Below, in pieces: positions 4,178-58,346 of a stretch of DNA of 64,000 nt. This DNA comes from Elusimicrobiota bacterium (GTDB lineage Bacteria > Elusimicrobiota > Elusimicrobia > UBA1565 > UBA9628): positions 9,330-73,329 of the forward strand of contig JBBTJN010000033.1 of NCBI GenBank assembly GCA_038059415.1. Reading direction: 5' to 3'. How positions within the stretch are numbered: the first letter of the stretch is position 1; every line of letters begins with the position of its first letter. The position numbers were made by a program, and so were the translations under genes. The notes under the pieces are model-generated. The model ran no database searches. It saw only the letters and a program-made list of their open reading frames with translations, and was not told the DNA's origin.

Positions 4178-4248
4178 AATGTGTAAGGTGCATCATTATT
4201 GCCACAAATAGGGTGACGCTGTCAATCGTGAGGAGGCCGGGCCGGAGA

Positions 4249-10796: not shown

Positions 10797-10813
10797 TTGG
10801 CTGCAGTGTTGCG
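10797..10813 (+). promoter_or_regulatory. Candidate sigma-54 promoter TGGCTGcagtgTTGCG (-24 GG / -12 GC) upstream of the regulator and hxs genes.
   Basis: It matches TGGCAC-N5-TTGC with correct GG/GC spacing, and the GC lies 12 nt before the ATG at 10825. Coordinates are +/-2. Confidence 0.45.
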
Positions 10814-10824
10814 AAGAGGGACTT

Positions 10825-11118: not shown

Positions 11119-11217
11119 TTCTCATCTATGGCATAAAATAGAATGGCCGGGACGAGGTTAAGCCGCTACCATAAGCACAGTCTCCCTGCTTTTCGACTTT
11201 CACTCCAAGAGGAACCC

Positions 11218-31245: not shown

Positions 31246-32555
31246 GCGACCTCCAGCTTTTCTAGATTCATGCCCTGCGAGACGCCGTTGGCCACGCGAG
31301 AGAGAAAGCCCAAAGCGCCCTGGAAGCCCAGGAACGGCTCGTCGCGCAGGAAGTGCGTGTCTTCCGAGGGATAGCCGAATTCCATGAACTTCGGGCCGCG
31401 GTGGATTTGGGCGAAGGCGAAATCGCTCCCGATGACAAGGTCGGCCCCGCCCTCGCGTCGGCAGAGCGCGCCCCACCGGTCGCGGACCTCGATGGGGAGG
31501 GGCTCGAACAAGGTGCCGGAGCGGCGCTCCAGGGCCCGTCTCTGCGCTTCGTTTAGATGGTAGGCGCCGCCGATCACGATCGTGCCCGCGATATTGCCGC
31601 CCAGGTCTTCGATCATCTCGGCGAATGCCAGGGCGTAATGCGGGTCGCCGGAGAAGGCGAAGGTCCGGTTCAGGAAGACATGAGGCACGCTCCAGGCCAG
31701 GCGCGGGGCGATCTCGTCGAGCTCGGCGGCGATGAAGGCTTTGGCCCGCTCCACTCTCCCGCACTCGTGGCCGAGCTGTTCGACGAAGCGGCGCGTCGCC
31801 TCGAGACCGAACGGCAGTTCCGCGTCGACGAGGGGCACTCTCAGGCGCTGAGCCAGGATCATCGCGGCCTTGCGGCCGTGGGGCATCGAGATGATCGCAC
31901 CGGCTCGGCGCACGTCGCGCAGGCGCTCGTAGGGCCGGCCGGACAGCCAGATCGAAACGGGCTCCAGCCCCAGGGCGCGGACGATGCGTTCGAGCTCCTT
32001 CAGGTTCCCCTGGTGATCGCCCTCGTTGCGGTCCATCAGGTAACCGACAAGGGCGACGTTCTTGTTCTTCGGCCTGGCTCCGTTGAGGTCCATGCCCGTC
32101 GCCATGGCCTCCATGACCGAGGCGTAGCCGTCGAGCCAGTCGCCCGACACGGCGGAGCGGCGCGGCATGGTGAAGGAGGGCTTGGCGTGGCCCGCCATGG
32201 CCTGGCGCAGTATGCGGTCGTAGTCGGTCCCGACGATGGAACACATCGGCATCGAGCCCAGAAAGACCACGCCGCACTTGGGCAGGGCCGCCATGCTGCG
32301 CAAAGAGGCGACGATGTCGCCCTCGCAGTCCCCGGCGATGTTGAAGACGTTGACGCCCGTGTGCTGTATGCGGTGGCGGCTATCGCAGGACAGCAAGGTC
32401 GAGAACAGGTCGTGGCGGCCGTGGATGTGGGAAGCTTTGTCGAAGATACAGCTGGGTCCGTCGCCGAGGAAGAAGGCGTCGGGGACGGCGTTCAAGGCCA
32501 GGTAGGCTCCCTGAAGGAAGGGGATGTTGATGCGGACACCGATTTTATTTGACAT
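31242..32555 (-). CDS. Nitrogenase component-1-like oxidoreductase subunit, A-type (NifD/NifE/BchN-like family), copy 1.
   Basis: 437 aa. VNIPFLQGAYLALNAVPDAFFLGDGPSC, GSMPMCSIVGTDY and GYLMDRNEGDH are conserved across five paralogs. It resembles PF00148-family proteins. Confidence 0.7.
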   Translation of the reverse strand: MSNKIGVRINIPFLQGAYLALNAVPDAFFLGDGPSCIFDKASHIHGRHDLFSTLLSCDSRHRIQHTGVNVFNIAGDCEGDIVASLRSMAALPKCGVVFLGSMPMCSIVGTDYDRILRQAMAGHAKPSFTMPRRSAVSGDWLDGYASVMEAMATGMDLNGARPKNKNVALVGYLMDRNEGDHQGNLKELERIVRALGLEPVSIWLSGRPYERLRDVRRAGAIISMPHGRKAAMILAQRLRVPLVDAELPFGLEATRRFVEQLGHECGRVERAKAFIAAELDEIAPRLAWSVPHVFLNRTFAFSGDPHYALAFAEMIEDLGGNIAGTIVIGGAYHLNEAQRRALERRSGTLFEPLPIEVRDRWGALCRREGGADLVIGSDFAFAQIHRGPKFMEFGYPSEDTHFLRDEPFLGFQGALGFLSRVANGVSQGMNLEKLEVA

Positions 32556-34275
32556 GATCGGCTCCCTGGGTTCCGGCGAGGTGGGCGGCGTAGCGGCGGT
32601 AGAACGGCAGGCGGCAGACGGAGAGGAGTTTTTTGAAGGTATTCATCGCACCGGCCAGGCCCATTTCGAAATCCTTGCCGCCGAAGCGGGCCTTGCCGGC
32701 CTGCATGATGCGCCAGTCGAAGACGACGTCGGAATAGACGGCGCGGAAGTCGTCGCCGGCCAGGGCCTTCTCCAGCTCCCAGGGCGTGCGGAACACCGTC
32801 ACGCGTGCGTCCTTGAGCCCGGAGGGGAGTGCGGGCGCGGCGCCATGCAGGTCGTAGTAGATGATGTCGATGGGAAATCCCATCTCGCGAACCATCTTCG
32901 CCAGCGGCGCGCCGCAGCCGTAGCGCAGGGTCATCAGCCGCGGCAAGGTCGCCTCGGAGGCGACGAAGGCGACGCGGTAGTTCGCGGCCTCCTTTTTCAT
33001 CTCGTTCCATGCGGCGAGGCAATCGACTGTCGTCTCGGCCCAGACCGTCTTGAACTCGGCTTCCTTGCCGACGGCGGCGGCGATGCCGCGCAGGCATTCG
33101 CGCGTGCTCTCGATGCCGTAGGGAGCGTTCACGACGATAACCGGACGCGAGGTCTTGGCCAGCATGTCTTGAAGCTTCGTCGGGTATGAGCTCCGGTCGC
33201 AGAAGATCTGCCATATCGCTTTGGGCAGGTCGTCGAGGACGGAGAGACGGATGTCGGGCATGACGGTGATGTTGGTCTTGAGCCCGATCTTCTGGAGGAA
33301 CGGCTTCAATTCGGCTTCGCGGTAATTCGGCGGGAAATGGAACAGGTTGACGGCCAAGGCGTCGGCGGGCGCCTCGAAGAATCCGGGACGGCCGAGCAAG
33401 GCGCGGAAGTGCTCGCCGAAGTTGTCGTTTGCGTCGCGGTCCTTCTGGCTCCAGCGCACGGAGGTGCCGTCGACCTCCTTTTCGCAGCGGCGCGCTAGGC
33501 CAGAGAAGTCCTCGCCCATGATGATGGGCGTGCACAGATGGGTGAAGAGAAGGTAGCTGCCGTTCTTGGCGCGCTTGCGGACCGCCTCGACCAGGGCGTC
33601 GGCGCGTTCGCCTGTCCCCATGATCATATCGCGCTCCTCGAGCTCGGTTACGATGGAGGAGTCCTCGCCGTCGTCGCGCACGCCGACCTCGCTTTCCTGG
33701 GGCCAGTCGAGAAAGGTCCACTTCTTGAAACTGCGATGCGGCCGCGCGTAGTAGCATTCAAGGTCGGCGTATTCGATGTTCACCGTGCGCTTGTCGGAGC
33801 ACGAAGGCACGCTCAGCAGAACCTCAAAATCCTGGTCCGCGTAGAAGTTCCGCCAGCCCGCCCCGAGCAGGCTGATAGGCTGGCCGATGCAGGGGACCTT
33901 GACTTGGTCTCCCTCCAGCTCGGGGACTATGTCCTCGGCGAAGGAGAGAGGGTCGACCTCGAGCAGGCGAGCGACGTTTTCGAAGCGGCGGGCTCCGAGA
34001 CGTGCGGCGGAGGCCTTGAGGAACTTCATGACGGAGGGGCCGGCCTCGCCTTCCGGCAGGAAGGACAGGCCGGGCGCCTTGATCGCGCTGCCGGGCGAGG
34101 TGCGGGGAAGAATATAGAAGACCAGACGATGCTCGCCGTGACGCAGACGCACGCAGATGTTCTTCTGATCTAGGCCGCACAGCCCTTCGAGACGCCAGCC
34201 CTTCGAGTCGGCCTTGAGGCCCAGCAGGGCCTCCATCACCGCCATCGCCCGGGGCCCCGCCGTGATGTGGCGCAT
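32545..34275 (-). CDS. Nitrogenase component-1-like oxidoreductase subunit, B-type (NifK/NifN/BchB-like family), copy 1.
   Basis: FTHLCTPIIMGEDF (Cys-x-x-x-x-IGDD-like) and the shared C-terminus AVYSDVVFDWR...KDFEMGL support the call. The internal ATG (MRHITAGPRAM...) matches paralog N-termini. Confidence 0.65.
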   Translation of the reverse strand: MRHITAGPRAMAVMEALLGLKADSKGWRLEGLCGLDQKNICVRLRHGEHRLVFYILPRTSPGSAIKAPGLSFLPEGEAGPSVMKFLKASAARLGARRFENVARLLEVDPLSFAEDIVPELEGDQVKVPCIGQPISLLGAGWRNFYADQDFEVLLSVPSCSDKRTVNIEYADLECYYARPHRSFKKWTFLDWPQESEVGVRDDGEDSSIVTELEERDMIMGTGERADALVEAVRKRAKNGSYLLFTHLCTPIIMGEDFSGLARRCEKEVDGTSVRWSQKDRDANDNFGEHFRALLGRPGFFEAPADALAVNLFHFPPNYREAELKPFLQKIGLKTNITVMPDIRLSVLDDLPKAIWQIFCDRSSYPTKLQDMLAKTSRPVIVVNAPYGIESTRECLRGIAAAVGKEAEFKTVWAETTVDCLAAWNEMKKEAANYRVAFVASEATLPRLMTLRYGCGAPLAKMVREMGFPIDIIYYDLHGAAPALPSGLKDARVTVFRTPWELEKALAGDDFRAVYSDVVFDWRIMQAGKARFGGKDFEMGLAGAMNTFKKLLSVCRLPFYRRYAAHLAGTQGADHVK

Positions 34276-34337
34276 CTTAGGCGGCGGCCTGCGCGCCGCG
34301 GCGCCCGCCGACGGACTTTTCATTTGGGTTGGAGGTA

Positions 34338-35150
34338 TCATCGGATGCTTCCTTCAAAGGATTTTATTTCGCGCGGAAGCGCGGGGAGGTCCGGGCGCAG
34401 TTCCGGCGCCGCCGACGCGAGCCGACGGCGCAGGTCCATGAAGAACTCGCCGTAGCGGCGGCCGAAGGCGATGTTATTGAGCAAAATCCGCCGCTGGCGC
34501 GCATTCCCGGCGTACATCGTGAAATGGGCGCTGGCGCAATGGAAACGATTGATGTAGAGGGAGTCGTAGGGGGGAGCATCGATCACGTTGCCCAAAGCGC
34601 GAGGCGTCGGGGCTCCCGGCGGCACGACCTCCATCAGCCATTCGGTGAGCAGGCGTATGGTGCCGTCCGTGTCCACGGTGAACTCGGGGTTGATGACCCC
34701 CGGCTCGACATCGCCGCGCAGATTGCCGATGCGGATATCGCCGGTCGCCAGTGCCCGGCGATGGCGCGCGAGCGATAACTCCTCGGCCTCGAGCAGGGCG
34801 TCGAGGAGGACGCGCTCGAACTCCTCGAGCCAGCCGATGGGAGCGGCCTTGGCCAGGCGCGCGAGGCAGGCGCGGACCAAGGGATCGTCCGCGTTCTTCG
34901 GCGAAGGCGCGGGCGTGACGGAAAAGCCCTCGCCGCATAGGGCGGTGAGCCTCACGATCCGGTATAGGTTCTCGAGAAGCTCCGACACGGGGGATTCCTG
35001 TCTCGCGATGAAGATGAGGTGCTCCTGATTGAGGCCGCAGCGCGCGAATTCGAGGGCGACCTCCTCGATGCGCGCGTAGCGGCTTGTTTTTCCCAGGCGC
35101 TTGAGCTGGGCGTCGCAGAAGCTGCCGGTCTCGATGCGAAGAGGCCTCAT
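34338..35150 (-). CDS. Radical-SAM C-terminal-half homolog lacking the CxxxCxxC motif. It is either a truncated remnant or an accessory subunit.
   Basis: It starts at the GxES-type motif (IETGSFCDAQLKRLGK), homologous to [16 protein letters not shown] of the 13801 gene. It also carries the LNSEL-like segment (INPEFTVDTDG) and the ILLNNIAFGRRYGEFF tail of the 15717 family. No Cys triad is present. Confidence 0.45.
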   Translation of the reverse strand: MRPLRIETGSFCDAQLKRLGKTSRYARIEEVALEFARCGLNQEHLIFIARQESPVSELLENLYRIVRLTALCGEGFSVTPAPSPKNADDPLVRACLARLAKAAPIGWLEEFERVLLDALLEAEELSLARHRRALATGDIRIGNLRGDVEPGVINPEFTVDTDGTIRLLTEWLMEVVPPGAPTPRALGNVIDAPPYDSLYINRFHCASAHFTMYAGNARQRRILLNNIAFGRRYGEFFMDLRRRLASAAPELRPDLPALPREIKSFEGSIR

Positions 35151-36445
35151 GCGAGGGTCCTCTCGGAGACCGCGCGCATCCGCGCGAGCATGAGATGCTC
35201 GGAGAGGCGGTCGGCGAAATTCAGAAAGCCTAGGAAGCCTAGAAAGGGCCGCGAGGCCAGCGCATGATGGAAGTAAGAGGGAAAGCCGAACTCCATGACC
35301 GGGCCCGCCTCTAGCCCCAACACCTGCCAGCCGACATTGTTGGCCACGCACAGATCGTAGGGCCCCCCGGCTTTGACGGCGGCGAGCAAGGCTGTCTCCT
35401 CGGGTTCCACGAGAGGGGGGGGGTCGAGAGCGAGCGCGCGCGGGCCGAGGCGTCCCTCTCGGGAGACGACCGCTGAGGCTTCGACGCGCGCGCCGAGCAG
35501 GGCGGCGATCTCGCAGAACCCTTCGAGCAGATGGGGGTCGCCAAGGTAGAGGAGGCGGCGGTTAAGGAAGACCTGCGGGGCCGCCCACTCCAGCGGGGGA
35601 ACGACGCGGCGCAGCTCCGCGTCGATGAAGCGCTCCGCCGCGGTATCGCGGCCGAGCGTGGCGGCCACCTTCCGGACCCAGCGGGTGCTCGCGTCCAGCC
35701 CGAAGGGCAACTCCGTCTCGATGAGCGGGACCTTCAGGCGCCTGGCGAGCGCGCTCGCCGCTTTGCGCGCATAGGGCAGACTGATCACGGCCGAGGCGCG
35801 GCGGGCTTCGGTCAGGTCGGCATAGGGCCCGCCGGAGGGCCAGGCGCTGGCAAGGTCGAGGCCGAGCGCCTTGAACATGCGTTTGAGTTCCGCTAGGTTG
35901 CCGTTCTGGTCGCCCTCGTTGCGGTCCATCAGATGGCCCACGACGGCCACGGCGTTGCGCTCACGCTTCGAGCGTCCGAGATCGATATTGCGCGCGATCT
36001 CCTCCCAGACGGAGGCGTAGCCGTCGAGCCAGTCCTGGTCCAGCGAGTCGCAGCGGATCTCCAGAAAGGGAGTGCGCGTCTTTCTGCTCAGAGGCTTGAT
36101 GAGGCGGTCATATTGGATGCCGGACAGGCCGCACATCGTTAGCGATGAGACCATCACCAGCCCCGCGTCGGGGCGCTTGAGCACGCGGTCGAGCAAGGTT
36201 TTGATCCGCTGTTCGCGGCTGAAGGTGACGGTGTCCCATGTGGTGCCCGTCATGACGATGCGGTGATAGCCGGAGGGGTCGAGCAAGGTCGAGCGCCAGT
36301 CGTGCTTGCCTGACAGATGCTCTGCCTTGAAGGAGATGCACTGAGGACCGTCGACGAGGAGATAGGCGTCGCGCACCGTGTTCACCGCGGCGTAGACGCC
36401 GAGGAGATAGGGGAGGTTTAGGCGAAGGGAGCGGCTGTCAGCCAT
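35147..36445 (-). CDS. Nitrogenase component-1-like subunit, A-type, copy 2.
   Basis: LNLPYLLGVYAAVNTVRDAYLLVDGPQC and the rest of the protein are paralogous to the 31242 gene. The internal ATG at 36445 was chosen to match paralogs. Confidence 0.65.
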   Translation of the reverse strand: MADSRSLRLNLPYLLGVYAAVNTVRDAYLLVDGPQCISFKAEHLSGKHDWRSTLLDPSGYHRIVMTGTTWDTVTFSREQRIKTLLDRVLKRPDAGLVMVSSLTMCGLSGIQYDRLIKPLSRKTRTPFLEIRCDSLDQDWLDGYASVWEEIARNIDLGRSKRERNAVAVVGHLMDRNEGDQNGNLAELKRMFKALGLDLASAWPSGGPYADLTEARRASAVISLPYARKAASALARRLKVPLIETELPFGLDASTRWVRKVAATLGRDTAAERFIDAELRRVVPPLEWAAPQVFLNRRLLYLGDPHLLEGFCEIAALLGARVEASAVVSREGRLGPRALALDPPPLVEPEETALLAAVKAGGPYDLCVANNVGWQVLGLEAGPVMEFGFPSYFHHALASRPFLGFLGFLNFADRLSEHLMLARMRAVSERTLA

Positions 36446-38789
36446 GGGGGGCCATCTCCGTGAGGTAGCGCGTGTAATCCTTGTACAGCGCAATTGCAGA
36501 GACGCCGAGCAGGCGCTCCAAGCTTCGGACGGCGCCCTCGACGCCCGGCTCGAAGAAGGGCAGAGAGAACTGGCTCTTGCCGGCGCGCGTGAGCCGGGTG
36601 TCGAAGAAGATGTCGGAGTAAACGGCGTCGATCGGTCGTTCGCGCAAAAGCGTCTCAAGCTCGGTCGGGGAGTGGAAGCGGCGGATCGTTTCCATCTCGC
36701 GCCTGTCGCCGGCCGACGGGTGCGGCTGTGCGCCGCTGCACCCGCACCACAGCAGCCAATGCAGGCCGAAGCCCATTTCCCGAAGAGTGGAGAGCAGCGG
36801 TATGCCCGCGCTCCAGCGGCAGTCGCGGAGCTGAGCCAGACGCGTGGCGTCGCAGACGAAGCCGAGGCAACGCCTGCCCGCCTGGAGCTTCAGAGCTTCC
36901 CAGCGCGGCCTGCGCGGCTCGTATTTCGCGGCCCAGAGCTCGTCAAATCTTTTTGTGAGGTCGAAGAATTGCGCGATTTCGCCCAGCCAGCGGCGGGTGC
37001 CCTGCATACCGTAGGGCGGCTCGAGGACGAGCGGCGGGATCGGGAGTTTCCCGAAGAGGTCGGTCGTGAGTCCCTCGTATGCGTGGTACGGCCGTATGAC
37101 CTGAAGATCCGCGTCTGCATAGCGCGCGATGCTGTCTTGATCGAACTCGGGCAGAAGGCAGGCGTTGACCTCGATGCCCAGAGCGCCGAGCCAGGCGGTG
37201 AGCTCTCCTAGGGCGCGGTCGCGCGGGAAGCCGACGAGGTTGAGACGAGGCCCCCTCCCGCGCCGGGCGGGCGGGGCTTTTTTCCCCGCGAGAGCGAAGA
37301 GATCGGACAATAGGTCGGTGTGTTGGTCCGCGTCGCGGTCGGGGAACAAGGTGGGGATTTTCGAGCGTAGACGGAAGCGCTCGATGATCGCCTCGTTGTC
37401 ATCGCCGATCACGACCGCCGGGCATGAAGTGAGGAACACCGCCAGCGCGGTCTTGCCCGGGTCCGCGGCAAGGCCGGTCATTGCAGCCTCCAGCTTCCGG
37501 CCGCCGCCCATGATGATCTCCCCGTCCTTGATGTCGGACACGATCTGGCGCGAGTTGAGCCGTCGCAGCTCGAAGGGCAGGGGAAGGACGTTCGAGCAGT
37601 GATTGGGCCAGGGATGGTTGATGAAGCCGGCCGTCCCGTCGTCGCTGCGCGCCTCGACGAAGAAGCACTCTAGCTCCTTCTGCACGACGAAGGCGGTGCC
37701 GCGCAGGAGCGGCTTGGCTGAGTTGAGCTCAATCTCCGGGTTGGCGAAGAATTGACGCCACTGATCCTCCACGCCCCAGGTCCACGTCATCCAACGGGTG
37801 TAGGGGGGCGCTGCGGCGGCACCTGCGGCTTTCGCCAACTCGTGCGGATGGCCTGGTGCCCGCGCGGGAAGCGGCGCAGACGCCGGGGTGTCCTTGACGC
37901 ACGTCTCCACGGGAGGCGCGGCGGCCGCGGCGCGAGCGCAGCGAGGACGCCTGCGCAAGAGGAAGCGGTTTCGGTTCGCATCGTAGAATTCCGCCTCGTC
38001 CATGGGCTCGGGCACCGTGAGCTTGCTGCGGTCCAGGGCGCGCAGGCGTTTGGCGATCCGCTCCAGGTTGGGTAGGGCCGTCGGCCGCGGCACGATCTCC
38101 GTCAGGCAGCGCTCTCGAGACTCAGCTTCTCGGAATGAGAGGTCGCGGTTTACGACGCCGACGACGCTGGTGCCGATGCGGCGGGCGAAGCGCTTGATGA
38201 GCCCCACGTCGGCGCCGGGATCCCGGAGATTGGCGACGAGCCCGCAGAGGCCGACGCCGTTGCCCGCGTAATTGCGGACCGCGTGTGCGATGTTGTTGGC
38301 GGCGTACAGCGACATCGCCTCCTCGCTGACGACGATCACGACTTTCTCCGCGAAGCCCAGGCGCAGGGGCGCGGCGAAGCCTCCGCAGACCACGTCTCCC
38401 AGCACGTCGAACGTCACGATGTCGTAGGCGCCGCGCTCGATGATCCGGTCGCGCTGGAGCACCTCGATCATTTTGCTGATGCCGCGGCCCGCGCAGCCCA
38501 CGCCCGGCTCCGGCCCGCCCGCCTCAATGCAGTCCAGGCCGAGCCGGCTGCGCATGAGGAATTCCGAGGATGGAGCGACGCCGAGATCCTCGCCTTGACG
38601 GCTCAGCACGCAGCGCGCCTCGGGCCGCTCCACGAGCAATGCGGTCGAGTCTCGCTTGGGGTCGCAGCCGACGTGGAGAACGCGCAGTCCCGATCTGGCG
38701 TAGATCGCGCTCAGGTTCGAGGAGATGGTCGACTTGCCGCTTCCGCCCTTGCCGAAGAATACGAGTTTTTCCGGCGTCCGTGAAATCAT
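36438..38789 (-). CDS. Fusion protein: N-terminal NifH-like (nitrogenase iron-protein family) ATPase joined to a C-terminal B-type nitrogenase component-1-like domain.
   Basis: The N-terminus is [13 protein letters not shown] (P-loop). It has the cluster Cys pair GCAGRG...VCGGFA, which matches the NifH/BchL/CfbC signature. The C-terminal 500 aa align with B-type paralogs ([51 protein letters not shown]). Confidence 0.75.
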
Positions 38790-38822
38790 TGCTCTCCGTT
38801 CATGGGGCCGACAAGACTGCTA

Positions 38823-38839
38823 TGCAACGCTACGGCCAA
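38823..38839 (-). promoter_or_regulatory. Candidate sigma-54 promoter for the minus-strand nitrogenase-like/rSAM operon.
   Basis: The reverse complement reads TTGGCCGTAGCGTTGCA, which is TGGC-N8-TTGCA with -24 GG / -12 GC spacing, about 20 nt upstream of the ATG at 38789. Coordinates are +/-2. Confidence 0.45.
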
Positions 38840-38893
38840 CCCGTGCTCGTCTTTGAGAGGTCTCAGTCGTGGAGATGCTTGTGTGGCCCCTAT

Positions 38894-38909
38894 TGGCCAG
38901 ATTGTTGCA
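38894..38909 (+). promoter_or_regulatory. Candidate sigma-54 promoter for the plus-strand nitrogenase-like/rSAM operon.
   Basis: TGGCCAGATTGTTGCA matches TGGCAC-N5-TTGCA. The GC lies about 22 nt upstream of the ATG at 38930. Coordinates are +/-2. Confidence 0.45.
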
Positions 38910-38929
38910 TAACTATGTAGTATTCATCC

Positions 38930-40135
38930 ATGAAGTCGACAACTCGATGTAACCAGAAGCCGAAATCTCTGCGCTTGTCCGAACGGGCGGGGGAAGCGAC
39001 GGATCGTCGCCAACTCGCGACGCGCCTCAGCCGTCTCGGTCTGAGGACTGAGGACCCCTTTCACAGCGCGACCATCGGCGAGGTCTACCTCATGCTCACG
39101 ATGGATTGCAATCTGCGCTGCCAGGCCTGCTCGCTGTGGGGCGAGGGCGGCGCATGCCATCGTAAGGCGTACTTCGAGGGCATCTCCGAGGCGGCGCCGT
39201 TGGAGCGTTTGCGCGCGTTCATCGACGAACTCGTCGCCTTCCGGCCCGAGTATGTGAACTTCGCGGGCGGCGAGCCACTGATGAGCCCGCACTGGAGAGA
39301 GCTGTCCCGGCGCGCCAAGGACCGAGGCCTGCGCACCATCCTCACGACGAACGGCGTGTTCCTAGACCGCTTCGCCCAGGAGGTGGCAGCAAACTTCGAC
39401 CAGGTCAACATCTCAATCGCGTGCCCGCCCGCCATGAGCAAGGAACTGCGCGGGGGACCTTCGGGGCATTACCAGGTCATGATGTGCGGCCTCAAGCGCC
39501 TGGCGGGCCTGCGCGACCGCGGCGCCGGGCGTAAGCCGATACTGAGGCTGATGTGCGAAGTCTTCGATTCCAACGGCGATCATCTCATTTCGCTCATCGA
39601 CCATCTCAAGGACGAGGGCGTGGCCTTCGATGAGATTTATTTCATGCACTTGATTTTCAACCGTCCAAGCGTGTTGTCGGCGCAGAAGCGGGTGTTCAAA
39701 GAGGAGTTCGGCATCCCTCTCGGTCTGTGGAACGGCTACGGCTATCGTCCGCACGCCATGGATTACGAGGCGCTGGACCGGGCGTTGGGCAAGCTGCGGG
39801 ACTCCTTGCCTCACGCGCGCTTCAATATCGCCCTGCGTGGCGCGAAGGCGCTGCGCGACTACTACGAGGGCCGCCGCAGGGGACTGGGCGCGGCATTCTG
39901 CGACGGGCCCTGGCGTCAGGTTAATGTATTTCCGAACGGGCAGGTCTGGGTGTGTCCCGATTACGTGCTGGGCGACCTTCGCGAGGGGAACTTCGCCGGA
40001 ATATGGGACGGTCCCAAGGCCCGCGCGCTTCGCCGCCGGACTTTCTCGAATATCTTTCCGGCGTGCCGCGGCTGCTTCTCGTTCTATGAGAAGGAGCAGC
40101 CGGTCGGCTCCGTTGACGCGGGAGCGCCCGAGTGA
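38930..40135 (+). CDS. Radical SAM/SPASM-domain protein.
   Basis: The motifs are CNLRCQAC and AGGEPLM. The C-terminal SPASM-like cysteines are CDGPWRQVNVFPNGQVWVCPDY...CRGC. The start may instead be the ATG at about 39092 (MLTMDC...), which is preceded by GAGG. Confidence 0.7.
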   Translation: MKSTTRCNQKPKSLRLSERAGEATDRRQLATRLSRLGLRTEDPFHSATIGEVYLMLTMDCNLRCQACSLWGEGGACHRKAYFEGISEAAPLERLRAFIDELVAFRPEYVNFAGGEPLMSPHWRELSRRAKDRGLRTILTTNGVFLDRFAQEVAANFDQVNISIACPPAMSKELRGGPSGHYQVMMCGLKRLAGLRDRGAGRKPILRLMCEVFDSNGDHLISLIDHLKDEGVAFDEIYFMHLIFNRPSVLSAQKRVFKEEFGIPLGLWNGYGYRPHAMDYEALDRALGKLRDSLPHARFNIALRGAKALRDYYEGRRRGLGAAFCDGPWRQVNVFPNGQVWVCPDYVLGDLREGNFAGIWDGPKARALRRRTFSNIFPACRGCFSFYEKEQPVGSVDAGAPE

Positions 40136-41820
40136 AGCACTCGACGGCCGGGCCCCGGGCCCTGGCGGCCGTGTCGACGCTTCTTGGCTTGGAGGCAAAG
40201 GGCTGGAGGCTGGACGGCCTGTGCGTCGAGGGCGGCGAACGCGCGCGCCTGTGCTTAGTGAGAGGCGAGCATCGCTTCGTCTTTCATCTTCTGGCGAGCG
40301 GGTTCGCGCTGAAGGCGGAGACCGAGGCGGGGCCGGCGCAGAAGCGCCTGCTGGAATTCCTGGCGGCGAGGCTGGGGCGCCGGCGGCTCGCGGACGTGGT
40401 GAAGCTCATCGATTCCGATCCCGACTCTTTCGTCGAGGAACTGACGCCCGGCGCGGACGGCGACCGCATAAAGGTCCCTTACGTCGCCGGGCCCATGGGC
40501 TTGTGGGAAGCGGGCTGGCGCAACTTCTTCGCGGATCAGGACTTCGAGATCCTGATGGAGGCGCCGGAGCCCACGTCGAACAACACTGTCACCGTCGAAT
40601 ACGCCGACCTCGAGTGCTTCTGCGCCCGCCCGGACATCAGTTTCAGCCAGTGGAGCTTCCTCGACTGGCCCGACGAGTCCGTGGACCTCGGCGAGGCCGG
40701 CGAGGACGCCTTTGTCGCCATTGAGCTCGAAGAGAAGGACATGGTCATGGGGACCGGCGAGAAGGCCGACGAGATGATCTCCGAGGTTCGCCGCCTCGCC
40801 GACGCCGGCAATTACATGGTCGTCACCCACCTGTGCACTCCGATCGTCATGGGCGAGGACTTCCAGGCGCTGGCGAAGCGTTGCGAGGAGGAGGTGGGCG
40901 GGACCTCGGTGAGCTGGAGCCAGAAGGATCGCGACCGCGGCGACAATTTCGGCGCGCATTTCCGTGAACTTCTCGGGAGACCCGGATTTTTCGAGGGCCC
41001 CGGCGACGCCGCCGCCGTCAACCTTTTTCACTTCCCGACGGAGTTCCGCGAGAAGCAGCTGCGCCCGTTCCTTGAGGAGATGGGACTCAAGGTCAACGTG
41101 TGCGTATTCCCCGTCGTGGATTTCCCGTCGCTTGAGCGCCTGCCCTTGGCACGCTGGCAGGTTTTTTGGGAGAAGCCGTCCTACGCCGACAAGACCCTTC
41201 AGTTCATGCGTGAGACCACTCGTCCGGTGGTGATGGCGCGCGCGCCTTATGGTGTGAAGGGGACGCGCCACTGCCTGCGCGCCATCGCAGCAGCGGTGGG
41301 TATGGAGCGGCAGTTTGAGGCGGTCTGGGCCAATCAATTTGCGTCCTTCCTCCCGTCCTGGGAGGAACGATGCAAGGAGGCCGCAACCTACCGGCTCGCC
41401 TTCGTAGTGTCGGAGTCGATCATGCCGCGCCTTCTGGATCTGCGCTACGGCCACGGCGCGCCCCTGGCGAGCATGCTGATGGAGATGGGTTTCGTCCTCG
41501 ATCTATTGTACTTCGACCGCCATGGAGGAGTTCCGCAACTGCCGCCGGGGTTGCACGGGGCGACGATCACGACATTCCGCAGCCCGTGCGAACTGGAGCG
41601 CCTGCTGCGCGAGGGGGAGTTTCGCGCCGTTTACTCGGATATCTTCTTCGACTGGCGCGTCAGCGCCGCAGGCAAGTCCCGGTTCTCCAGCCGCGATTTC
41701 GAGATGGGGCTCTCGGGCGCGAGTCGCAGTCTGGATCGGCTCTTGAATGCCTGTCGCCTTCCCTTCTACCGCCGCTACGGCGCGCGGCTGGCCCGCCGAT
41801 CCCGGAGGGTGAATGTCTAG
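40132..41820 (+). CDS. Nitrogenase component-1-like subunit, B-type, copy 2.
   Basis: It is a paralog of the 32545 gene, with THLCTPIVMGEDF and [29 protein letters not shown]. Confidence 0.7.
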   Translation: MKHSTAGPRALAAVSTLLGLEAKGWRLDGLCVEGGERARLCLVRGEHRFVFHLLASGFALKAETEAGPAQKRLLEFLAARLGRRRLADVVKLIDSDPDSFVEELTPGADGDRIKVPYVAGPMGLWEAGWRNFFADQDFEILMEAPEPTSNNTVTVEYADLECFCARPDISFSQWSFLDWPDESVDLGEAGEDAFVAIELEEKDMVMGTGEKADEMISEVRRLADAGNYMVVTHLCTPIVMGEDFQALAKRCEEEVGGTSVSWSQKDRDRGDNFGAHFRELLGRPGFFEGPGDAAAVNLFHFPTEFREKQLRPFLEEMGLKVNVCVFPVVDFPSLERLPLARWQVFWEKPSYADKTLQFMRETTRPVVMARAPYGVKGTRHCLRAIAAAVGMERQFEAVWANQFASFLPSWEERCKEAATYRLAFVVSESIMPRLLDLRYGHGAPLASMLMEMGFVLDLLYFDRHGGVPQLPPGLHGATITTFRSPCELERLLREGEFRAVYSDIFFDWRVSAAGKSRFSSRDFEMGLSGASRSLDRLLNACRLPFYRRYGARLARRSRRVNV

Positions 41821-43114
41821 CCCGGGCGTCCGGTTCAATCTTCCCTTTCTCCACGGACTCTATGTCGCCTTCAACGCCATCCCCGACGCCTACTTCTTGG
41901 GCGACGGACCGAGCTGCGTATTCGCCAAGGCCGAGCACATACACGGCCGCCACGACCAGTTCTCCACGCTTCTCTCCTGCGGCAGCGATCATCGCATCCA
42001 GTACACGGGAGTCAACGTCTTCAACATCGCCGGCAACTTCGAGGCGGAGATATCCTCGGCGCTCAAGCGCATCGCAGGCTGGCGGAGTTCCGGCGTGATC
42101 TTCACCGGGGCGATGCCCATGTGCGCCGTCGCCGGTACCGATTACGAGAGAATACTGCGCGACGCCTTGGCCGGATGCGGCAAGCCCGCGTTCCTCATCC
42201 CGAGGCGTTCGGCCGTCTCCGGCGACTGGCTTGATGGCTACGCGGGCGGCCTCGAGGTCATCGCCGCAGGCATCGATCTCGCAGGAGCCAAACCCAAAAA
42301 GGGAAGCGCCGCGATCGTGGGCTATTTGATGGACCGCAACGAGGGCGACCACCAGGGCAACATACGCGAGCTCGAGTGCATGCTGCGCGCTTTGGGCATC
42401 GAGCCGGTCTCGATCTGGCTCTCGGGCCGCCCGTACGAGCACCTGCGCGAGATCCGGCGGGCGGGGGCGATCATCTCCCTGCCCTACGGCCGTGCGGCGG
42501 CGAAGACGCTGGCTAAGCGCCTAGGCGTGAAGCTCGTCGAGGCTGAGCTTCCCTTTGGGCTGGAGGCGAGCCGGCGGTTCGTGGAACTGCTGGGACGCGA
42601 GTTCGGCAGCGAGGACAAGGCTCGCGCCTTCATCGAGGCGGAGCTCGATGCGGTGGTGCCGCGGCTGGAGTGGAGCGTTCCGCACGCCTTCGCCAACCGC
42701 CGCTTCGCGTTCGCGGGGGATCCGCATTACGCCGAGGGATTCGCTGAGGTTGTCGAGGAACTCGGCGGACGCATCGTGGCGACGATCGTTATGGGCCGCA
42801 CCGGACATCTCAACGAGGAACGGCGGCGTCTGCTCGAGGCCCGGTCCGGCACGGTGTTCGAGCCGGATCGGGCCAAGTTGCGGCGCCTGTTCGGGGCGAC
42901 GACGCGCTGGGAGGTGGACCTTCTTGTCTGCAACAGCCGCAGCCTCAAGTACATCAACCCCCGGATTCCGTGGCTCGAGTTCGGCTTTCCCTCGGAATAC
43001 ACCCATTTCCTCGACAACGCGCCTTTCCTGGGATTTCGGGGAGCGCTCACCTTCCTCTCGCGGATGGCCAACGAGGTTGTCAAGGGCCTGCGCATGAAGT
43101 CGGCGGCGCCGTGA
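41813..43114 (+). CDS. Nitrogenase component-1-like subunit, A-type, copy 3.
   Basis: The N-terminus is MSSPGVRFNLPFLHGLYVAFNAIPDAYFLGDGPSC. It is a paralog of the 31242 gene. Confidence 0.7.
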   Translation: MSSPGVRFNLPFLHGLYVAFNAIPDAYFLGDGPSCVFAKAEHIHGRHDQFSTLLSCGSDHRIQYTGVNVFNIAGNFEAEISSALKRIAGWRSSGVIFTGAMPMCAVAGTDYERILRDALAGCGKPAFLIPRRSAVSGDWLDGYAGGLEVIAAGIDLAGAKPKKGSAAIVGYLMDRNEGDHQGNIRELECMLRALGIEPVSIWLSGRPYEHLREIRRAGAIISLPYGRAAAKTLAKRLGVKLVEAELPFGLEASRRFVELLGREFGSEDKARAFIEAELDAVVPRLEWSVPHAFANRRFAFAGDPHYAEGFAEVVEELGGRIVATIVMGRTGHLNEERRRLLEARSGTVFEPDRAKLRRLFGATTRWEVDLLVCNSRSLKYINPRIPWLEFGFPSEYTHFLDNAPFLGFRGALTFLSRMANEVVKGLRMKSAAP

Positions 43115-44499
43115 GCGCTCTCAACGTGGCGCCGGCTCGCGCCTTGCTCGCGGAAGGCCGGCTCGAGGAGTGTGCGAGGGAGATCTCGCGGCTGATCGCC
43201 TCCAAGCCGGCATGGCCGAAGGGCTCCCTCATCGGCTCCGTCCAGGGCCTACTGGCCGCTCGCGGCTGGACCATTGCCGTCGCGTCGCCGCGGGGCAAGG
43301 TGGTTCTCGCGGTCAGGCGGATGGAAGACGAGAGTGTCCTCGGCGCGTACATACTCGAGTACCGGGCCGCGCTGGATTGCGCGCGGAGCGTGTCCGTTCC
43401 CGCGCTGTTCCATCTGCGCCGCCTGCCGGGCAGCGCCGGGACGCGCCTGAGCGCGGAGGAGAAGCCGGAGCTCGAAAATCTATCGACCGGGTTGTGCCTT
43501 CTTTTCGAATCTTTGCGCGGGCGGTCCGGCGGCGGCACCGGCTTGATCGTTCAGGCAGAGACGCACGAGGCGGGCCGCGAAGGCCTCGAGAGGATTCTTC
43601 GCATCACGTCGGCCTGCAATCATCGCTGCCCGTTCTGCTTCGTTCCCGTTAACGCGGGCGGTGCCGATCGCGCGGAGCTCGAGCGCGAGCTCGACGCGCT
43701 GGCTCCCGTCCTTGGGCCGCACGGGACCGTGGTGATCTCGGGCGGCGAGCCCACCGTGGACCCGCGCCTGGTGGACATCATCGCGTCTGCGCGTCGCCGC
43801 GGGCTGCGGCGCTTCGTGCTGCAGACCAACGGGGCGGCCCTCGTCCGTCCGGGCCTGATGGAAAGCCTGCTCGCGCTCGGCGTGGAGGGTTTCGACGTTT
43901 CCTTCCATGCGCACAAGCCCAGTTCCCATGCCCGAATCACCGGGAACCGCGACACCTTTCCCAAGGTCGTCGAAGGCCTGGGTCGGCTGCTGGATTCGGG
44001 ACGGTGCCGGGTGACGGCGTGCGTGCTGGTCAACGCTTGGAACTATCGGGAGTTGCCCCAATTGGTGGGGTTCTTGGGGAAGTTGTCCCGGGAGCGGCTC
44101 AAAAAGGGAACGGGCCGTCTCGAGGTCGCCTTCTCCTTCATGAACGGGGCCGGCATGAACACCGCTGCGCGCATGGCCGTCGATCTCAAGAAGGCCGCGC
44201 CCTATCTGCAACGGGCGCTCGCGCGCTGCCATCAAGAGGGCCTCGTGGCCCAACGCTTCACGGGTGAGACCGCCATGCCGCCCTGCCTCGTCGCCGACTC
44301 GGCGGCGTACGCGGGCGACATCGAGTTCTCTCAGGAGCGCGTGCGTTACGCGGAGGACTTCCGCGGAGAGACCGGCAACGTCGGGCGCGCCAAGAGCCCC
44401 TCATGTAGGAAGTGCGTGTACGACTTGCGATGCATGGGCGTGCCGGCGGAGTACGCCAGACGGTTCGGCCTGGGAGCGCTGTCATGCAGAACCAAGTAA
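43111..44499 (+). CDS. Radical SAM protein with an N-terminal domain of about 170 aa.
   Basis: The motifs are CNHRCPFC and SGGEPTV. The tail is CRKCVYDLRCMGVPAEYARRFGL. The GTG start overlaps the upstream stop. It is a paralog of the 56357 gene. Confidence 0.65.
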   Translation: MSALNVAPARALLAEGRLEECAREISRLIASKPAWPKGSLIGSVQGLLAARGWTIAVASPRGKVVLAVRRMEDESVLGAYILEYRAALDCARSVSVPALFHLRRLPGSAGTRLSAEEKPELENLSTGLCLLFESLRGRSGGGTGLIVQAETHEAGREGLERILRITSACNHRCPFCFVPVNAGGADRAELERELDALAPVLGPHGTVVISGGEPTVDPRLVDIIASARRRGLRRFVLQTNGAALVRPGLMESLLALGVEGFDVSFHAHKPSSHARITGNRDTFPKVVEGLGRLLDSGRCRVTACVLVNAWNYRELPQLVGFLGKLSRERLKKGTGRLEVAFSFMNGAGMNTAARMAVDLKKAAPYLQRALARCHQEGLVAQRFTGETAMPPCLVADSAAYAGDIEFSQERVRYAEDFRGETGNVGRAKSPSCRKCVYDLRCMGVPAEYARRFGLGALSCRTK

Positions 44500-45488
44500 G
44501 ACCGCTCCGGCTCGACCTCATCCTGACTCGGATCTGCCCCATGGCCTGCGTGTACTGCCATATGGATCACCGGCCGGGCGTGATGAGCCCGCGCGTGTGG
44601 CGCAAGGCCGTGGACCTCCTTCTCAGGGAGCAAGGGCCTCTGGAACTCCAGCTCATGGGGGGCGAGCCGCTCGTCGAGTATGATCTCGTGCGGGAGATTT
44701 TGACCTACGCGGCCGCGGCGGCCGCCAAAAAGAGGAAAGCCCTCGGCCTCGGGGTGACCACCAATGGGCTGCTCCTCACCGCGAAGCGCGCTGCCGAGCT
44801 CCGGCGCCTCGGAGCCCGCGTGATGCTGAGCTTCGACGGCGACAAGGACGTGCAGACCGCGCAGCGGACTCAGCGGGCGGGCGGGGAAAAGTTCTGGACG
44901 GTGCTGAAGCGCAATTTGGCGGCGTTGGGGGCCTCCGGAAATCCCTTCTTCGTCAACATCGTCGTCACCCCCGAGTCCGCCGGACGATTGTCCCAAGGCG
45001 TCACCTTCCTGCTTGGTCAAGGAGTGCGCGCCTTCCAGATCAGCTACGCCTTGGGTGTTTTTTGGGATGAGGAGCGCTTGAATATCTTGGAAGAGGAACT
45101 GCGCAAGAGCTACCGACAGGCCGACGCGGCTCTTCCACCTGCGGAGGTGTTCAACCGCCGCAACGACGCCGAGCCGGTGCTGCTGAGCCCGCAGCATGTC
45201 GTTGATACAGACGGGCGGCTGTATGTCGGAACCTCGATCGTGCTCGAGCATCTCTGGCCGGCTCTGCACCGGTCTTTCCTGGTCGGCGCCGTCGGCAAGC
45301 TGCGCAGCTTTCCTGGGCGAGGCGTGGGGCCGCAGGAGCAGCTTCGCCGCCTGCGCGCCGCGGATGTCGCCGGCGAGGCGCGCCGGACCATGCGCAACAA
45401 TCTGGCGGTCGGGAAACGGATGCGCGAGTTCTGGAAGAAGGAGATACTCCTCGCGCCGGGATCCGATTATCGCAAAGGAGGCCGCTGA
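44484..45488 (+). CDS. Radical SAM protein.
   Basis: The motifs are CPMACVYC and MGGEPLV. The internal ATG at 44484 (MQNQVRPLRLDL...) is placed just upstream of the Cys motif. Confidence 0.65.
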   Translation: MQNQVRPLRLDLILTRICPMACVYCHMDHRPGVMSPRVWRKAVDLLLREQGPLELQLMGGEPLVEYDLVREILTYAAAAAAKKRKALGLGVTTNGLLLTAKRAAELRRLGARVMLSFDGDKDVQTAQRTQRAGGEKFWTVLKRNLAALGASGNPFFVNIVVTPESAGRLSQGVTFLLGQGVRAFQISYALGVFWDEERLNILEEELRKSYRQADAALPPAEVFNRRNDAEPVLLSPQHVVDTDGRLYVGTSIVLEHLWPALHRSFLVGAVGKLRSFPGRGVGPQEQLRRLRAADVAGEARRTMRNNLAVGKRMREFWKKEILLAPGSDYRKGGR

Positions 45489-47242
45489 TGTCTTTCCAGG
45501 CTCAGGTGGCGCACCTGTTGGCGGGCGCGAAATCCACGGCGGCCCTTGCGAAGCTGCTGGGCGTGTCGGGGGCGAAGGATGGGTGGACCTTGCGGTCGTT
45601 GTGCGGAGTCGGCGCGACGAATGTCCGCGTCGGCCTAAGCAAAGGCAAGATGCGCCTCGCGTTCTATCTTCTGCCCAAGGGCGCGCCGAACGCCGTCGCC
45701 GAGACCGCCGGGCTGTCCTTGACTGCCGAGGGAGATCCGGGGCCGGCCATGAGAAGGCTCGTCGCAGCTGTGGCCGGACGGCTCGGCGCGCGCACCCTGG
45801 AGGACGTCCTCAAAATAATCGCGGACGATCCCGAGACCTTCGTCGAGATGGTGCCGGGCGGAGGCCCGGAGAGCGGCCTGCGCGTGCCCCTGGCCGCGGG
45901 CCCGATCAACCTTCTCGAGGCCGGCTGGCGCAACTTCTTCGCCGATCAGGACTATGAGGTCCTTCTCGGCTATCCTGAGCTGAAGATGAACAAGACGATC
46001 TACGCGCGCTACTCCGACCGCGAGTGCCTGTACTCGTGGTCCGGCAACGACCCTCGCAAATGGTCGTTCTTCGCCTATCCGGTGCGGGTTCCCTCCGACA
46101 GCTTCGGGGCGACGGTGTTTCGCACAGGGATCGTGATGGAACTTGAGGAGCGCGACATGGTCCTGGGCGCAGTCGAGAAGGCTGACGCCTTGGTCGAGTC
46201 GGTGGCCAAGGCCTCGGTCGGCTCCGGCGCGGATTACGTCGTCTTCAACCACTTCTGCACCTCAATTGTCATGGGCGAGGACTCCGGGTCGATTACGCGC
46301 CGCATCGAGGAAGCCAGCGGACTGAAAACCGTCTGCTGGAGCCACGGCGATCGCGATCAACTCAACAACTTCGGCGAGCACTTCAAGCAGTTGTTCGCCA
46401 AGCCCGGATTCTTTGACGCCCCCGTCGAGAAATCGTCCGTGAACCTTTTCCATTTCCCGACTGACTTCCGTGAGGCGGAGTTGGTGCCGCTGCTCGGGGA
46501 GATGGGAGTGAAGGCCAACACGCGACTGTTCCCCGATGTGGATTTCCCGTCCATGGAGAGGATTTCAAGCGCCGCCGCCCATGTCTTCTGCGCGGCGACC
46601 TCCTACCAGTCCAAGCTTCCGGAACTCCTGGCCGGCGGGCCCCGTCCGGTGCTGACGACGCGGGCGCCGTACGGGATCGAGGATACCGGAGAGTGCCTCA
46701 AGGCCATCGCGAAGGCCGCGGGACGAGAGAAGGCCTTCGCGGCGGCCTGGAAGAAGAAGCTCTCGGCGCTCAGACCCGCCTGGGAGGACATGACGAAGCT
46801 GGCCCGGGGGTTCCGGCTTGCTTTCGTCGTGTCGGAGACGACCTTGCCCATGCTCTGGGAATTGCGCCACGGGCAGGGCGCGCCCATGATGCGTATGATC
46901 GAGGAGATGGGATTTGGCGTCGATATCCTCTACTACGACCCGCACAACGAGAGGCCGGATATCAATGCGGACTCCCGCTGCGCGAAGCTCCAAACCTTCC
47001 GTACGCCGCGGGATCTGACGCGGGCCTTGCGCGAAGGTGATTTCCGTGCGGTCTATTCGGATATCTTCTTCGACTGGAGGATCAGCGCGTCGGGCAAAGC
47101 GCGCTTCTCCAGCAAGGACTTCGAGATGGGGCTGGACGGGGCGCTGCGGTCGCTGCGTCGGCTGCTCGCGGTTTGCCGTCTGCCTTTCTATGACCGCTAC
47201 GGCAGCCATTTGGCCGGGCTTGCAGGGAGGGAACTTGCCTAA
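45488..47242 (+). CDS. Nitrogenase component-1-like subunit, B-type, copy 3.
   Basis: It is a paralog of the 40132 gene, with NHFCTSIVMGEDS and [29 protein letters not shown]. Confidence 0.7.
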   Translation: MSFQAQVAHLLAGAKSTAALAKLLGVSGAKDGWTLRSLCGVGATNVRVGLSKGKMRLAFYLLPKGAPNAVAETAGLSLTAEGDPGPAMRRLVAAVAGRLGARTLEDVLKIIADDPETFVEMVPGGGPESGLRVPLAAGPINLLEAGWRNFFADQDYEVLLGYPELKMNKTIYARYSDRECLYSWSGNDPRKWSFFAYPVRVPSDSFGATVFRTGIVMELEERDMVLGAVEKADALVESVAKASVGSGADYVVFNHFCTSIVMGEDSGSITRRIEEASGLKTVCWSHGDRDQLNNFGEHFKQLFAKPGFFDAPVEKSSVNLFHFPTDFREAELVPLLGEMGVKANTRLFPDVDFPSMERISSAAAHVFCAATSYQSKLPELLAGGPRPVLTTRAPYGIEDTGECLKAIAKAAGREKAFAAAWKKKLSALRPAWEDMTKLARGFRLAFVVSETTLPMLWELRHGQGAPMMRMIEEMGFGVDILYYDPHNERPDINADSRCAKLQTFRTPRDLTRALREGDFRAVYSDIFFDWRISASGKARFSSKDFEMGLDGALRSLRRLLAVCRLPFYDRYGSHLAGLAGRELA

Positions 47243-48572: not shown

Positions 48573-48618
48573 AGGTCCTAGATGAGAGAGGCGGTCAGAG
48601 GATTTACAGGAGCTGCCA

Positions 48619-49449: not shown

Positions 49450-49497
49450 GCGTGCTATGAATCAGGTCGACCTCTGCCGCCGCGCGAAGGCGGCGCC

Positions 49498-54262: not shown

Positions 54263-54452
54263 GGGCCGAGGCAAGGAGTCGGTTCAGGTTTGGGAGACTT
54301 TCATTGAGCAGGGGCGGCTCGATGAGAAAAAGGAGATGCGTGAAATCCTGGAGGCGGGGCTGAAGCGAGCCAAAGGCATCCGCCGTCCGGAACACTCTCT
54401 CAACTCGATCTGGCTGGGACGCCATGCTCGTCCTCCTCATGAAGAAGCTTAA
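54255..54452 (+). CDS. Small ORF (65 aa) after the last nitrogenase-like gene. It is possibly a small protein or peptide, and very uncertain.
   Basis: An ORF only. It reads MVKGRGKESVQVWETFIEQGRLDEKKEMREILEAGLKRAKG, is charged and helical, and has no domain match. Confidence 0.12.
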   Translation: MVKGRGKESVQVWETFIEQGRLDEKKEMREILEAGLKRAKGIRRPEHSLNSIWLGRHARPPHEEA

Positions 54453-58279: not shown

Positions 58280-58346
58280 GAGTGCTCGTGATCGTAGCAA
58301 CGATCCTGCCGGAAGGGGTGGTCGTCTTGTTGCACTGCGGACCTAG

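Follow-up and report, generated by a model that had tools for sequence, protein, structure and literature searches.

A probable pair of divergent sigma-54-class promoters between two Group VI nitrogenase-like/radical SAM operons in an Elusimicrobiota genome

The 64,000-nucleotide stretch of Elusimicrobiota DNA analyzed here, referred to as the window, carries a "Group VI" nitrogenase-like cluster of the kind known from groundwater Elusimicrobia, with several NifH/D/K paralogues and many radical SAM genes. A 140-bp gap (38790-38929) separates two gene-dense, gap-free divergent blocks of this cluster. Judging from motif matches and their conservation, we consider it likely that this gap holds two back-to-back divergent sigma-54-class (-24/-12) promoters, one per operon, and sigma-54-class promoters most likely drive both of these Group VI nitrogenase-like/radical SAM operons. 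The published descriptions of Group VI clusters are silent on promoters, sigma factors and regulators, and no rpoN or sigma-54 entries occur in the supplementary files of the Meheust preprint (Meheust et al., 2020, bioRxiv 10.1101/765248; Chem Rev, 2026, PMC13474568). The cluster in the window is the same one, and what the present analysis adds to it is the promoter pair and a nearby regulatory module; a connection of sigma-54-class promoters with the Group VI cluster, a compact family of sigma-54 homologues and the promoter geometry described below all appear to be new.

The plus-strand element P(+), TTGGCCAGATTGTTGCAT, lies at 38893-38910 (GG at 38895-96, GC at 38907-08) and the minus-strand element P(-), TTGGCCGTAGCGTTGCAT, at 38839-38822 (GG at 38837-36, GC at 38825-24). 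Both show the exact GG-N10-GC spacing, and both lie in non-coding DNA, each oriented toward the first gene of a gap-free operon. A preliminary description of this DNA had proposed two divergent elements of the -24/-12 type here, and this proposal is borne out, as the strings it quoted are present on the plus strand (TTGGCCAGATTGTTGCA, 38893-38909) and on the minus strand (TTGGCCGTAGCGTTGCA, 38839-38823), the spacing is exact, P(+) is the top-scoring site of the window and the cores of both elements are conserved in three further genomes. Equally real is the 8-nt inverted repeat that it had noticed in the two -12 elements, TATGCAAC (38821-28) and GTTGCATA (38904-11), which extends to arms of 19 nt that are 79% complementary and stand 53 nt apart. 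The interval between the two -24 elements (38840-38892) measures 53 bp, and its length is kept while its sequence is not conserved. The description had also placed each element 20-22 nt before the first start codon. This is right for P(+), where 20 nt separate TTGCA from ATG 38930 of a radical SAM/SPASM gene, but not for P(-), since the first ATG on that side (38803), about 20 nt from TTGCA, opens only a 5-codon upstream open reading frame (uORF), and the gene itself, a NifH-NifD fusion starting at 38789, begins 33 nt beyond TTGCA. An Rfam scan of 38500-39200 found no family, and a sigma-70 consensus scan of the same interval, gap included, found no sigma-70-type site.

The uORF on the minus side, ATGAACGGAGAGCAATGA (38786-38803, minus strand), ends in a stop codon that shares an ATGA with the start of the NifH-NifD fusion gene, and a Shine-Dalgarno-like GGAGAG (38797-38792) lies inside it. 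Its ATG falls 21 nt past the -12 C of P(-), mirroring the plus side. A uORF with the same ATGA overlap is also found in two related loci, L018 (5788-5805) and L074 (~2987-3004), and the encoded peptide is MNGEQ or MNGAK. The overlap of stop and start codons suggests translational coupling with the fusion gene.

Scans for the consensus TGGCAC-N5-TTGCW covered both strands of the 64-kb window (128,000 positions) and used two position weight matrices. Matrix 1 (18 columns) is an approximate rendering of the Barrios compilation. Matrix 2 (19 columns, training median 17.4 bits) was built from 178 curated promoters, 24 of E. coli and 154 of Desulfovibrionales, taken from S2 Table of PMC12316311, because the S3 Table of that paper, said to hold the seed promoter matrix, holds protein motifs. 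P(+) scores 17.2 bits with matrix 1 and 16.0 bits with matrix 2 and ranks first in the window with both. P(-) reaches 12.3 bits and rank 8 with matrix 1 and 6.5 bits and rank 33 with matrix 2, such that the matrix scan put forward in the preliminary description favors P(+) clearly and is equivocal on P(-); the latter draws its support from conservation rather than from score. In dinucleotide shuffles of the gap, the probability of a maximum at least as high as observed was 0.0008 (matrix 1) or 0.002 (matrix 2), and that of the observed opposite-strand pair was ~0.0002 with either matrix. Among the matches of at least 12 bits in the window, five of eight fall in the non-coding 3.3% of its sequence, all of them oriented toward a gene, against 0.24 expected from shuffles of the window's non-coding DNA. 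The bare pattern TGGC-N7-TTGC is mildly enriched, with six occurrences vs. 2.6 expected and 6 of 100 shuffles reaching six. High-scoring sigma-54-like strings also occur within NifK-like and NifD-like genes (48395-48412, plus strand; 33197-33214, minus strand), and the same coding strings recur in related loci (L004 2093 and 3912; L005 2102 and 10032; L008 10876; L014 10915). Such intragenic matches, for example the plus-strand site at 48395 and CTGGCAGGTCTTCTGCGA, were rejected as conserved coding sequence of the NifK/NifD-like paralogues (e.g., W-L-E-F-G-Y-P-S), and any search of this cluster for sigma-54 sites can be misled by these strings.

The divergent cassette recurs in three further genomes (L001, L018/L019 and L074), which together with the window form a footprinting set whose proteins are 75-86% identical. 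L018/L019 carries the same two flanking genes as the window, L001 has a different minus-side gene (a 346-aa open reading frame, ORF), and in L074 the cassette is flanked by NifH-NifD and, across the gap, by a 1919-aa protein. All eight promoter copies, from four genomes and both strands, read nGGCC-N5-GTTGC(A/G)T, with N5 spacers that are all different; the 53-bp interior is unalignable among the four genomes, and the distance from one -12 C to the other is 84, 84, 83, and 84 bp. A bipartite -24/-12 element would be expected to show just this, invariant GG and GC blocks around a spacer that is free to vary. ATG 38930 and the N-terminal extension of the radical SAM/SPASM protein are themselves conserved in L001 and L018. 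At most related loci the radical SAM/SPASM gene is operon-internal, and therefore no promoter is expected there. Metagenome contigs were also scanned with the single protein for close radical SAM/SPASM relatives, and none were found; a profile scan returned distant loci only, in which the gene is operon-internal, and no extra promoter copies. A non-coding mask for related loci based on GC content at third codon positions was dropped as too permissive in GC-rich genomes, and curated or called gene coordinates were used.

Candidate sites of the same class are found elsewhere in the lineage. In the contig tail beyond the window and in related contigs, we took the gene starts preceded by a gap of 25 nt or more and looked for an oriented site within 110 nt. 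With matrix 1, sites of at least 10.5 bits precede 13 of 50 such starts vs. none of 33 operon-internal starts, and with the literature matrix (matrix 2) sites of at least 9 bits precede 10 of 50 vs. 1 of 33. A gene for a sigma-54-like protein, described below, has a high-scoring site before it in four of five related contigs (19.0, 19.1, 12.4, and 14.7 bits; none in L069), and a near-identical site, CTGGCCGTTTCATTGC, stands before a single-domain response regulator in three genomes. Others are found upstream of genes for a radical SAM protein, malic enzyme, a cation ATPase, YceI and acetyl-CoA hydrolase.

In the related contigs, the spacing between the -12 C and the ATG has its maximum at 13-16 nt (7 of 49 matches vs. 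a background of 2.3%). By the sigma-54 rule the transcript would begin at this same point, and many such mRNAs would therefore be leaderless. Start codons at this distance are seen at L064 13297, L066 7352, 16494 and 16559, L068 10097 and 14424, L070 11114, and window positions 4177 and 10825, often with GGC just before them. Taken at face value, this geometry means that enhancer-dependent promoters would give mRNAs with no leader or almost none. Additionally, back-to-back divergent -24/-12 pairs whose -24 elements are 0-8 nt apart occur in very short intergenic regions (L064 15784-15825; L066 16506-16548; L068 ~10053-10086; window 58295-58336). It is hard to see how two polymerases could occupy such an abutting pair at the same time.

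A sigma-54-class promoter calls for an activator, and the preliminary description had held that one is implied but not encoded in the window. This proved correct. No activator is present among the Pfam-scanned proteins of the window, and a six-frame pattern search of the window and related loci L001-L017 for GAFTGA, the RpoN box and Walker A gave no match. An activator of the NtrC type bearing GAFTGA was found just beyond. The sequence past the right end of the window was read from contig CAYHZH010000004.1 (GCA_964360845.1; L064), and its coordinates are given here as window equivalents. Regulatory genes lie 1-4.5 kb past the window end on this contig, beginning with a single-domain response regulator (64556-64906). 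The second gene (64943-66304; L064 13334-14695) encodes a 453-aa NtrC/AtoC-type activator, identified by Pfam and motifs, which consists of a receiver domain, Sigma54_activat (236 bits), a lid and HTH_8, and its translation contains GESGTGKE, ESELFGH and an intact GAFTGA. Adjoining it is a PAS-HisKA-HATPase kinase (66306-67388). The best NCBIfam matches of activator and kinase are AtoC, NtrC, ZraR and AtoS, all below the equivalog cut-offs (455 vs. 714; 422 vs. 559). Divergent from the kinase and activator, on the plus strand, lies a gene for a 360-aa protein (67471-68553; L064 15862-16944) which we read as a sigma-54 homologue. The description had made the call depend on the presence of rpoN, and this divergent homologue on the same contig leaves the call standing. 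The NifA/NtrC-like activator that it had foreseen takes the NtrC form on this contig, with a receiver domain and not the GAF domain of NifA.

The 360-aa protein is most likely a highly divergent sigma-54 homologue, and its sigma-factor activity is putative. Its match to Sigma54_DBD scores 49.2 bits against a cut-off of 22.8, and its N-terminus (MKQTQKLSLAASQRL...PEREFAQEI..LEKDPLF) resembles region I. The helix-turn-helix (HTH) reads PSTVSRA and the C-terminal box SRRTVNAVR, which compared with the RpoN box ARRTVAKYR retains RRTV but not AKY; in the 33 family members compared, S, RRTV, N, V and R do not vary. A profile of these 33 members finds only sigma-54 chains in the PDB (E 2e-6). The AlphaFold model of the protein has a predicted local distance difference test score (pLDDT) of 78.9, and in a Foldseek search of the PDB its top 27 matches were all sigma-54 chains, with probabilities of at least 0.75, E-values down to 5e-8 and 227-432 aligned columns; template modeling (TM) scores were low (0.25-0.34), as expected of a multi-domain protein. 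The protein belongs to a compact family of 355-362 aa that is widespread in metagenome-assembled genomes of Elusimicrobia, where its public labels are hypothetical protein, transposase and XRE regulator. In all five genomes inspected the sigma-54-like gene is divergent from a kinase and activator (module at L064 12947-15779, minus strand; L066 7005-9861; L068 5594-7950; L069 7293-9960; L070 7076-9899). The single-domain response regulator is part of the module in three of the five, and in two (L068 and L069) the activator lacks the HTH_8 DNA-binding domain.

Several observations weigh against the reading of the gap as a pair of sigma-54-class promoters. P(-) is much weaker than P(+), with just 6.5 bits from the literature matrix, and matrix 1 only approximates the compilation that it follows. 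Some orthologous copies have G at -11 (TTGCG) or C/G in place of T at -26; both are rare in validated promoters, and these copies score near or below zero with matrix 2. No such site is present at the more distant NifH-NifD orthologues L072 (71% identity) and L073 (58%) or in the low-GC relative L069, which confines the feature to one clade. The 360-aa protein reaches 56.6 bits against TIGR02395 (rpoN), far from the cut-off of 277.35, and a Pfam scan of it returned no match to the activator-interacting (AID) or core-binding (CBD) domain. For Elusimicrobium minutum, the sole cultured reference that was surveyed, both sigma-54 and its activators were reported to be absent (PMC3162934). The leader that P(+) would give is merely 8-10 nt long and has no Shine-Dalgarno sequence before the conserved ATG. 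The nif-type upstream activator sequence TGT-N10-ACA, named in the preliminary description as something to look for, has no match in the 64-kb window, where ~2.9 would be expected. Finally, no enhancer was found: a search for a dyad shared upstream of nine candidate promoters of the contig gave nothing convincing.

An unlikely alternative, which nevertheless survives best, is that the two elements are operator or dyad arms for an ordinary regulator, perhaps the 360-aa protein acting as a repressor or activator, and that the promoters it controls are of another type. The 19-nt inverted repeat with its 79% complementarity fits this, as does the fixed distance of 83-84 bp from arm to arm in four genomes. 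The 360-aa protein also misses the rpoN cut-off, with sequence models detecting its DNA-binding part only, and sigma-54 in some bacteria binds at its own gene, which we count on the same side. However, the element occurs singly before many other genes, directed toward the gene and at a fixed short distance from its ATG, which is the behavior of a promoter. The model of the 360-aa protein aligns with sigma-54 over nearly its whole length (250-430 columns) and the region-I-like N-terminus is kept, and the sigma-54-like gene adjoins a module with a GAFTGA activator in five genomes. We regard it as improbable that the gap holds sigma-70-family promoters (housekeeping or extracytoplasmic function) with leaderless or short-leader mRNAs, the -24/-12 likeness being incidental. 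By eye, the plus strand does offer TGGCCA-N18-TAGTAT (8 of 12 positions), from which the start would fall at ATG 38930, and many neighboring start codons stand only 13-22 nt from the motif. The consensus scan of 38500-39200 nonetheless found no site of this type, conservation in L001, L018 and L074 extends to GGCC and GTTGC but not to the putative -10, and the conserved blocks are 12 bp apart from center to center and cannot be a -35/-10 pair. That the motifs are functionless chance likenesses in a GC-rich genome is very improbable, for although the bare pattern is only mildly enriched window-wide (P ~0.06), P(-) and a third site near 10797 rank just 33 and ~956 with the literature matrix, and some high-scoring matches are conserved NifK/NifD-like coding motifs, the shuffle probability of the pair is ~2e-4, non-coding DNA takes five of the eight best matches and the cores stay the same across four genomes in a gap that otherwise defies alignment.

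If the gap does hold two sigma-54-class promoters, the following sequence of events can be proposed. Polymerase carrying the compact 360-aa sigma-54 homologue, whose gene lies 28.6 kb downstream, would bind both elements as closed complexes. The NtrC/AtoC-type activator, phosphorylated under the control of its PAS histidine kinase, would then use ATP to remodel both complexes through its GAFTGA loop. Transcription from P(+) would start at ~38920 and drive the operon running from the radical SAM/SPASM gene to the NifD/K-like genes, leaving a leader of 8-10 nt to ATG 38930. Transcription from P(-) would start at ~38812 and drive the NifH-NifD-fusion operon (38789 down to 25671), with a 23-nt leader to ATG 38789 that would contain the uORF and GGAGAG. 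One signal, plausibly redox or oxygen, may in this way switch on the whole Group VI cluster.

Divergent -24/-12 promoters activated by NifA are familiar from Klebsiella nifH/nifJ. The window resembles the proteobacterial nif promoters in having GG-N10-GC before nitrogenase-family operons, in the divergent arrangement of the pair and in the AAA+ activator that this implies. It differs in lacking TGT-N10-ACA, and in that the only activator found on the contig is a response regulator rather than a GAF-domain NifA. The -24 elements are also only 53 bp apart, unlike in nif systems, and fixation of N2 is not expected of Group VI enzymes (Meheust et al., 2020, bioRxiv 10.1101/765248; PMC13474568). 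The "nif-style" regulation of the preliminary description thus holds at the level of sigma-54 and an activator and fails at the level of NifA, with no NifA enhancer and a response regulator as activator. The feature is best filed as a predicted instance of the enhancer-dependent sigma-54 promoter, not as "nif-style" in the NifA sense. With NtrB/NtrC and AtoS/AtoC the contig shares a PAS-HisKA kinase and an activator composed of receiver, AAA+ domain (GAFTGA) and Fis-type HTH; unlike those pairs, all its matches stay below the equivalog cut-offs, and therefore its activator and kinase are not orthologues of any named system. Activators of the FlgR/CtcC type work without an enhancer, and the HTH-less activators of two related genomes resemble them. 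The 360-aa protein resembles canonical RpoN in its homologous C-terminal HTH and RpoN-box region, in a model whose significant matches are to sigma-54 structures only and in its region-I-like N-terminus. It differs in size, the compact family having only 355-362 aa compared with 477 aa in E. coli and 398 aa in Aquifex aeolicus, in falling below the TIGR02395 cut-off without a Pfam AID or CBD match, and in its box, SRRTVNAVR for ARRTVAKYR.

The minus-strand operon (25671-38789) comprises about eight tightly packed genes with no gaps, as judged from ORFs and Pfam: a NifH-NifD fusion (36438-38789), a NifK-like gene, an unassigned ORF, NifD-like and NifK-like genes, a radical SAM gene, a HypF-like carbamoyltransferase/radical SAM fusion and another radical SAM gene. 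The plus-strand operon (38930-54452) begins with the radical SAM/SPASM gene (38930-40135) and continues with NifD/K-like pairs, radical SAM genes, a NifH-like gene, a second NifH-NifD fusion and a NifK-like gene; it possibly runs on to 57589 via a tetrapyrrole methylase and two radical SAM genes. The cluster thus has two NifH-NifD fusions (36438-38789, minus strand, 783 aa; 50595-52991, plus strand, 798 aa), and homologues of 750-1090 aa number in the hundreds in Elusimicrobia, with one in the myxobacterium Pseudenhygromyxa and one labeled Deltaproteobacteria. Giant fusions of ~1160 aa, which join ferredoxin-like 4Fe-4S motifs, a HypF/NodU-type carbamoyltransferase and radical SAM, are encoded at 6197-9667 (plus strand) and 26609-30106 (minus strand). 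A tetrapyrrole has been suggested in print as the molecule that the cluster modifies, and the tetrapyrrole methylase gene (TP_methylase, 54578-55336, plus strand), which lies at the end of the plus-strand block, agrees with this. At 25671-25674 the minus-strand nitrogenase-like operon and a converging plus-strand radical SAM block overlap by their 3' ends, and no terminator was seen between them. Between the cluster and nrdD/nrdG there is a gene for a Crp/Fnr-family regulator (cNMP_binding and HTH_Crp_2; 58512-59027, plus strand), which could be a second regulator of anaerobic genes.

The window contains further candidate sites. On the minus strand, GTGGCAATAATGATGCAC (4188-4205; 13.4 bits with matrix 1, 9.3 bits with matrix 2) lies within a 71-nt gap before a PAS histidine kinase-hemerythrin pair, and the kinase ATG at 4177 falls 13 nt past its -12 C. 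This pair, a PAS histidine kinase followed by a hemerythrin-domain protein (2586-4177, minus strand), recurs in a related genome (L066 20127-21071, minus strand). Also on the minus strand, ATGGCAGCATTGTTGCGT (2547-2564; 12.8 bits with matrix 1, 5.8 bits with matrix 2) matches TGGC-N7-TTGC exactly and lies in the gap before moeA, and CCGGCAGGATCGTTGCTA (58295-58312; 12.3 bits with matrix 1, 10.6 bits with matrix 2) precedes ATG 58279 of a 213-aa protein with no assigned family, which lies 18 nt past the -12 C. The preliminary description had named a third good match near 10797, upstream of a regulator and hxs genes. The string it quoted, TGGCTGCAGTGTTGCG, is present at 10798-10813 and does lie upstream of HTH and hxs genes, but the score is weak: the full plus-strand site, TTGGCTGCAGTGTTGCGA (10797-10814), reaches 9.6 bits and rank 19 with matrix 1 and -3.3 bits and rank ~956 with matrix 2, the latter mainly because of G at -11. 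It occupies a gap of 35 nt that follows a stop codon, and 13 nt beyond it lies the GTG of a 97-aa HTH protein ahead of hxsD/hxsB. These plus-strand genes (10825-13358) encode the small HTH protein, which matches BcepMu gp16 only weakly and below the cut-off, and then HxsD and HxsB of a His-Xaa-Ser system, both of which exceed their NCBIfam cut-offs; after them come about ten radical SAM and B12-radical SAM genes in a row.

More tentatively, and with rather less confidence than we place in the promoter pair itself, the compact sigma-54 homologue and the conserved PAS-kinase/NtrC-type module might form a near-global transcription system in high-GC groundwater Elusimicrobia, with the Group VI operons in its regulon. 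This possibility is suggested by the sites found before about a quarter of the sampled transcription units, the frequent divergent pairs and the many ATG codons 13-16 nt past the -12 C, as well as by a sigma gene that is itself behind the strongest sites and an activator that in some genomes has no DNA-binding domain. The leaderless geometry, if it holds, would be an unusual use of enhancer-dependent promoters. The findings also point to a blind spot in annotation, with a family of compact sigma-54 homologues labeled hypothetical and the reference species of the phylum scored as lacking sigma-54. Group VI clusters are among the least understood of the nitrogenase family, and the promoter pair and regulatory module would be a first regulatory lead. 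If our reading is true, an operon pair of ~29 kb would be off by default and turned on by one phosphorylation signal, and the kinase, activator and sigma homologue of the module would be the named proteins needed for switching the cluster on in a heterologous host.

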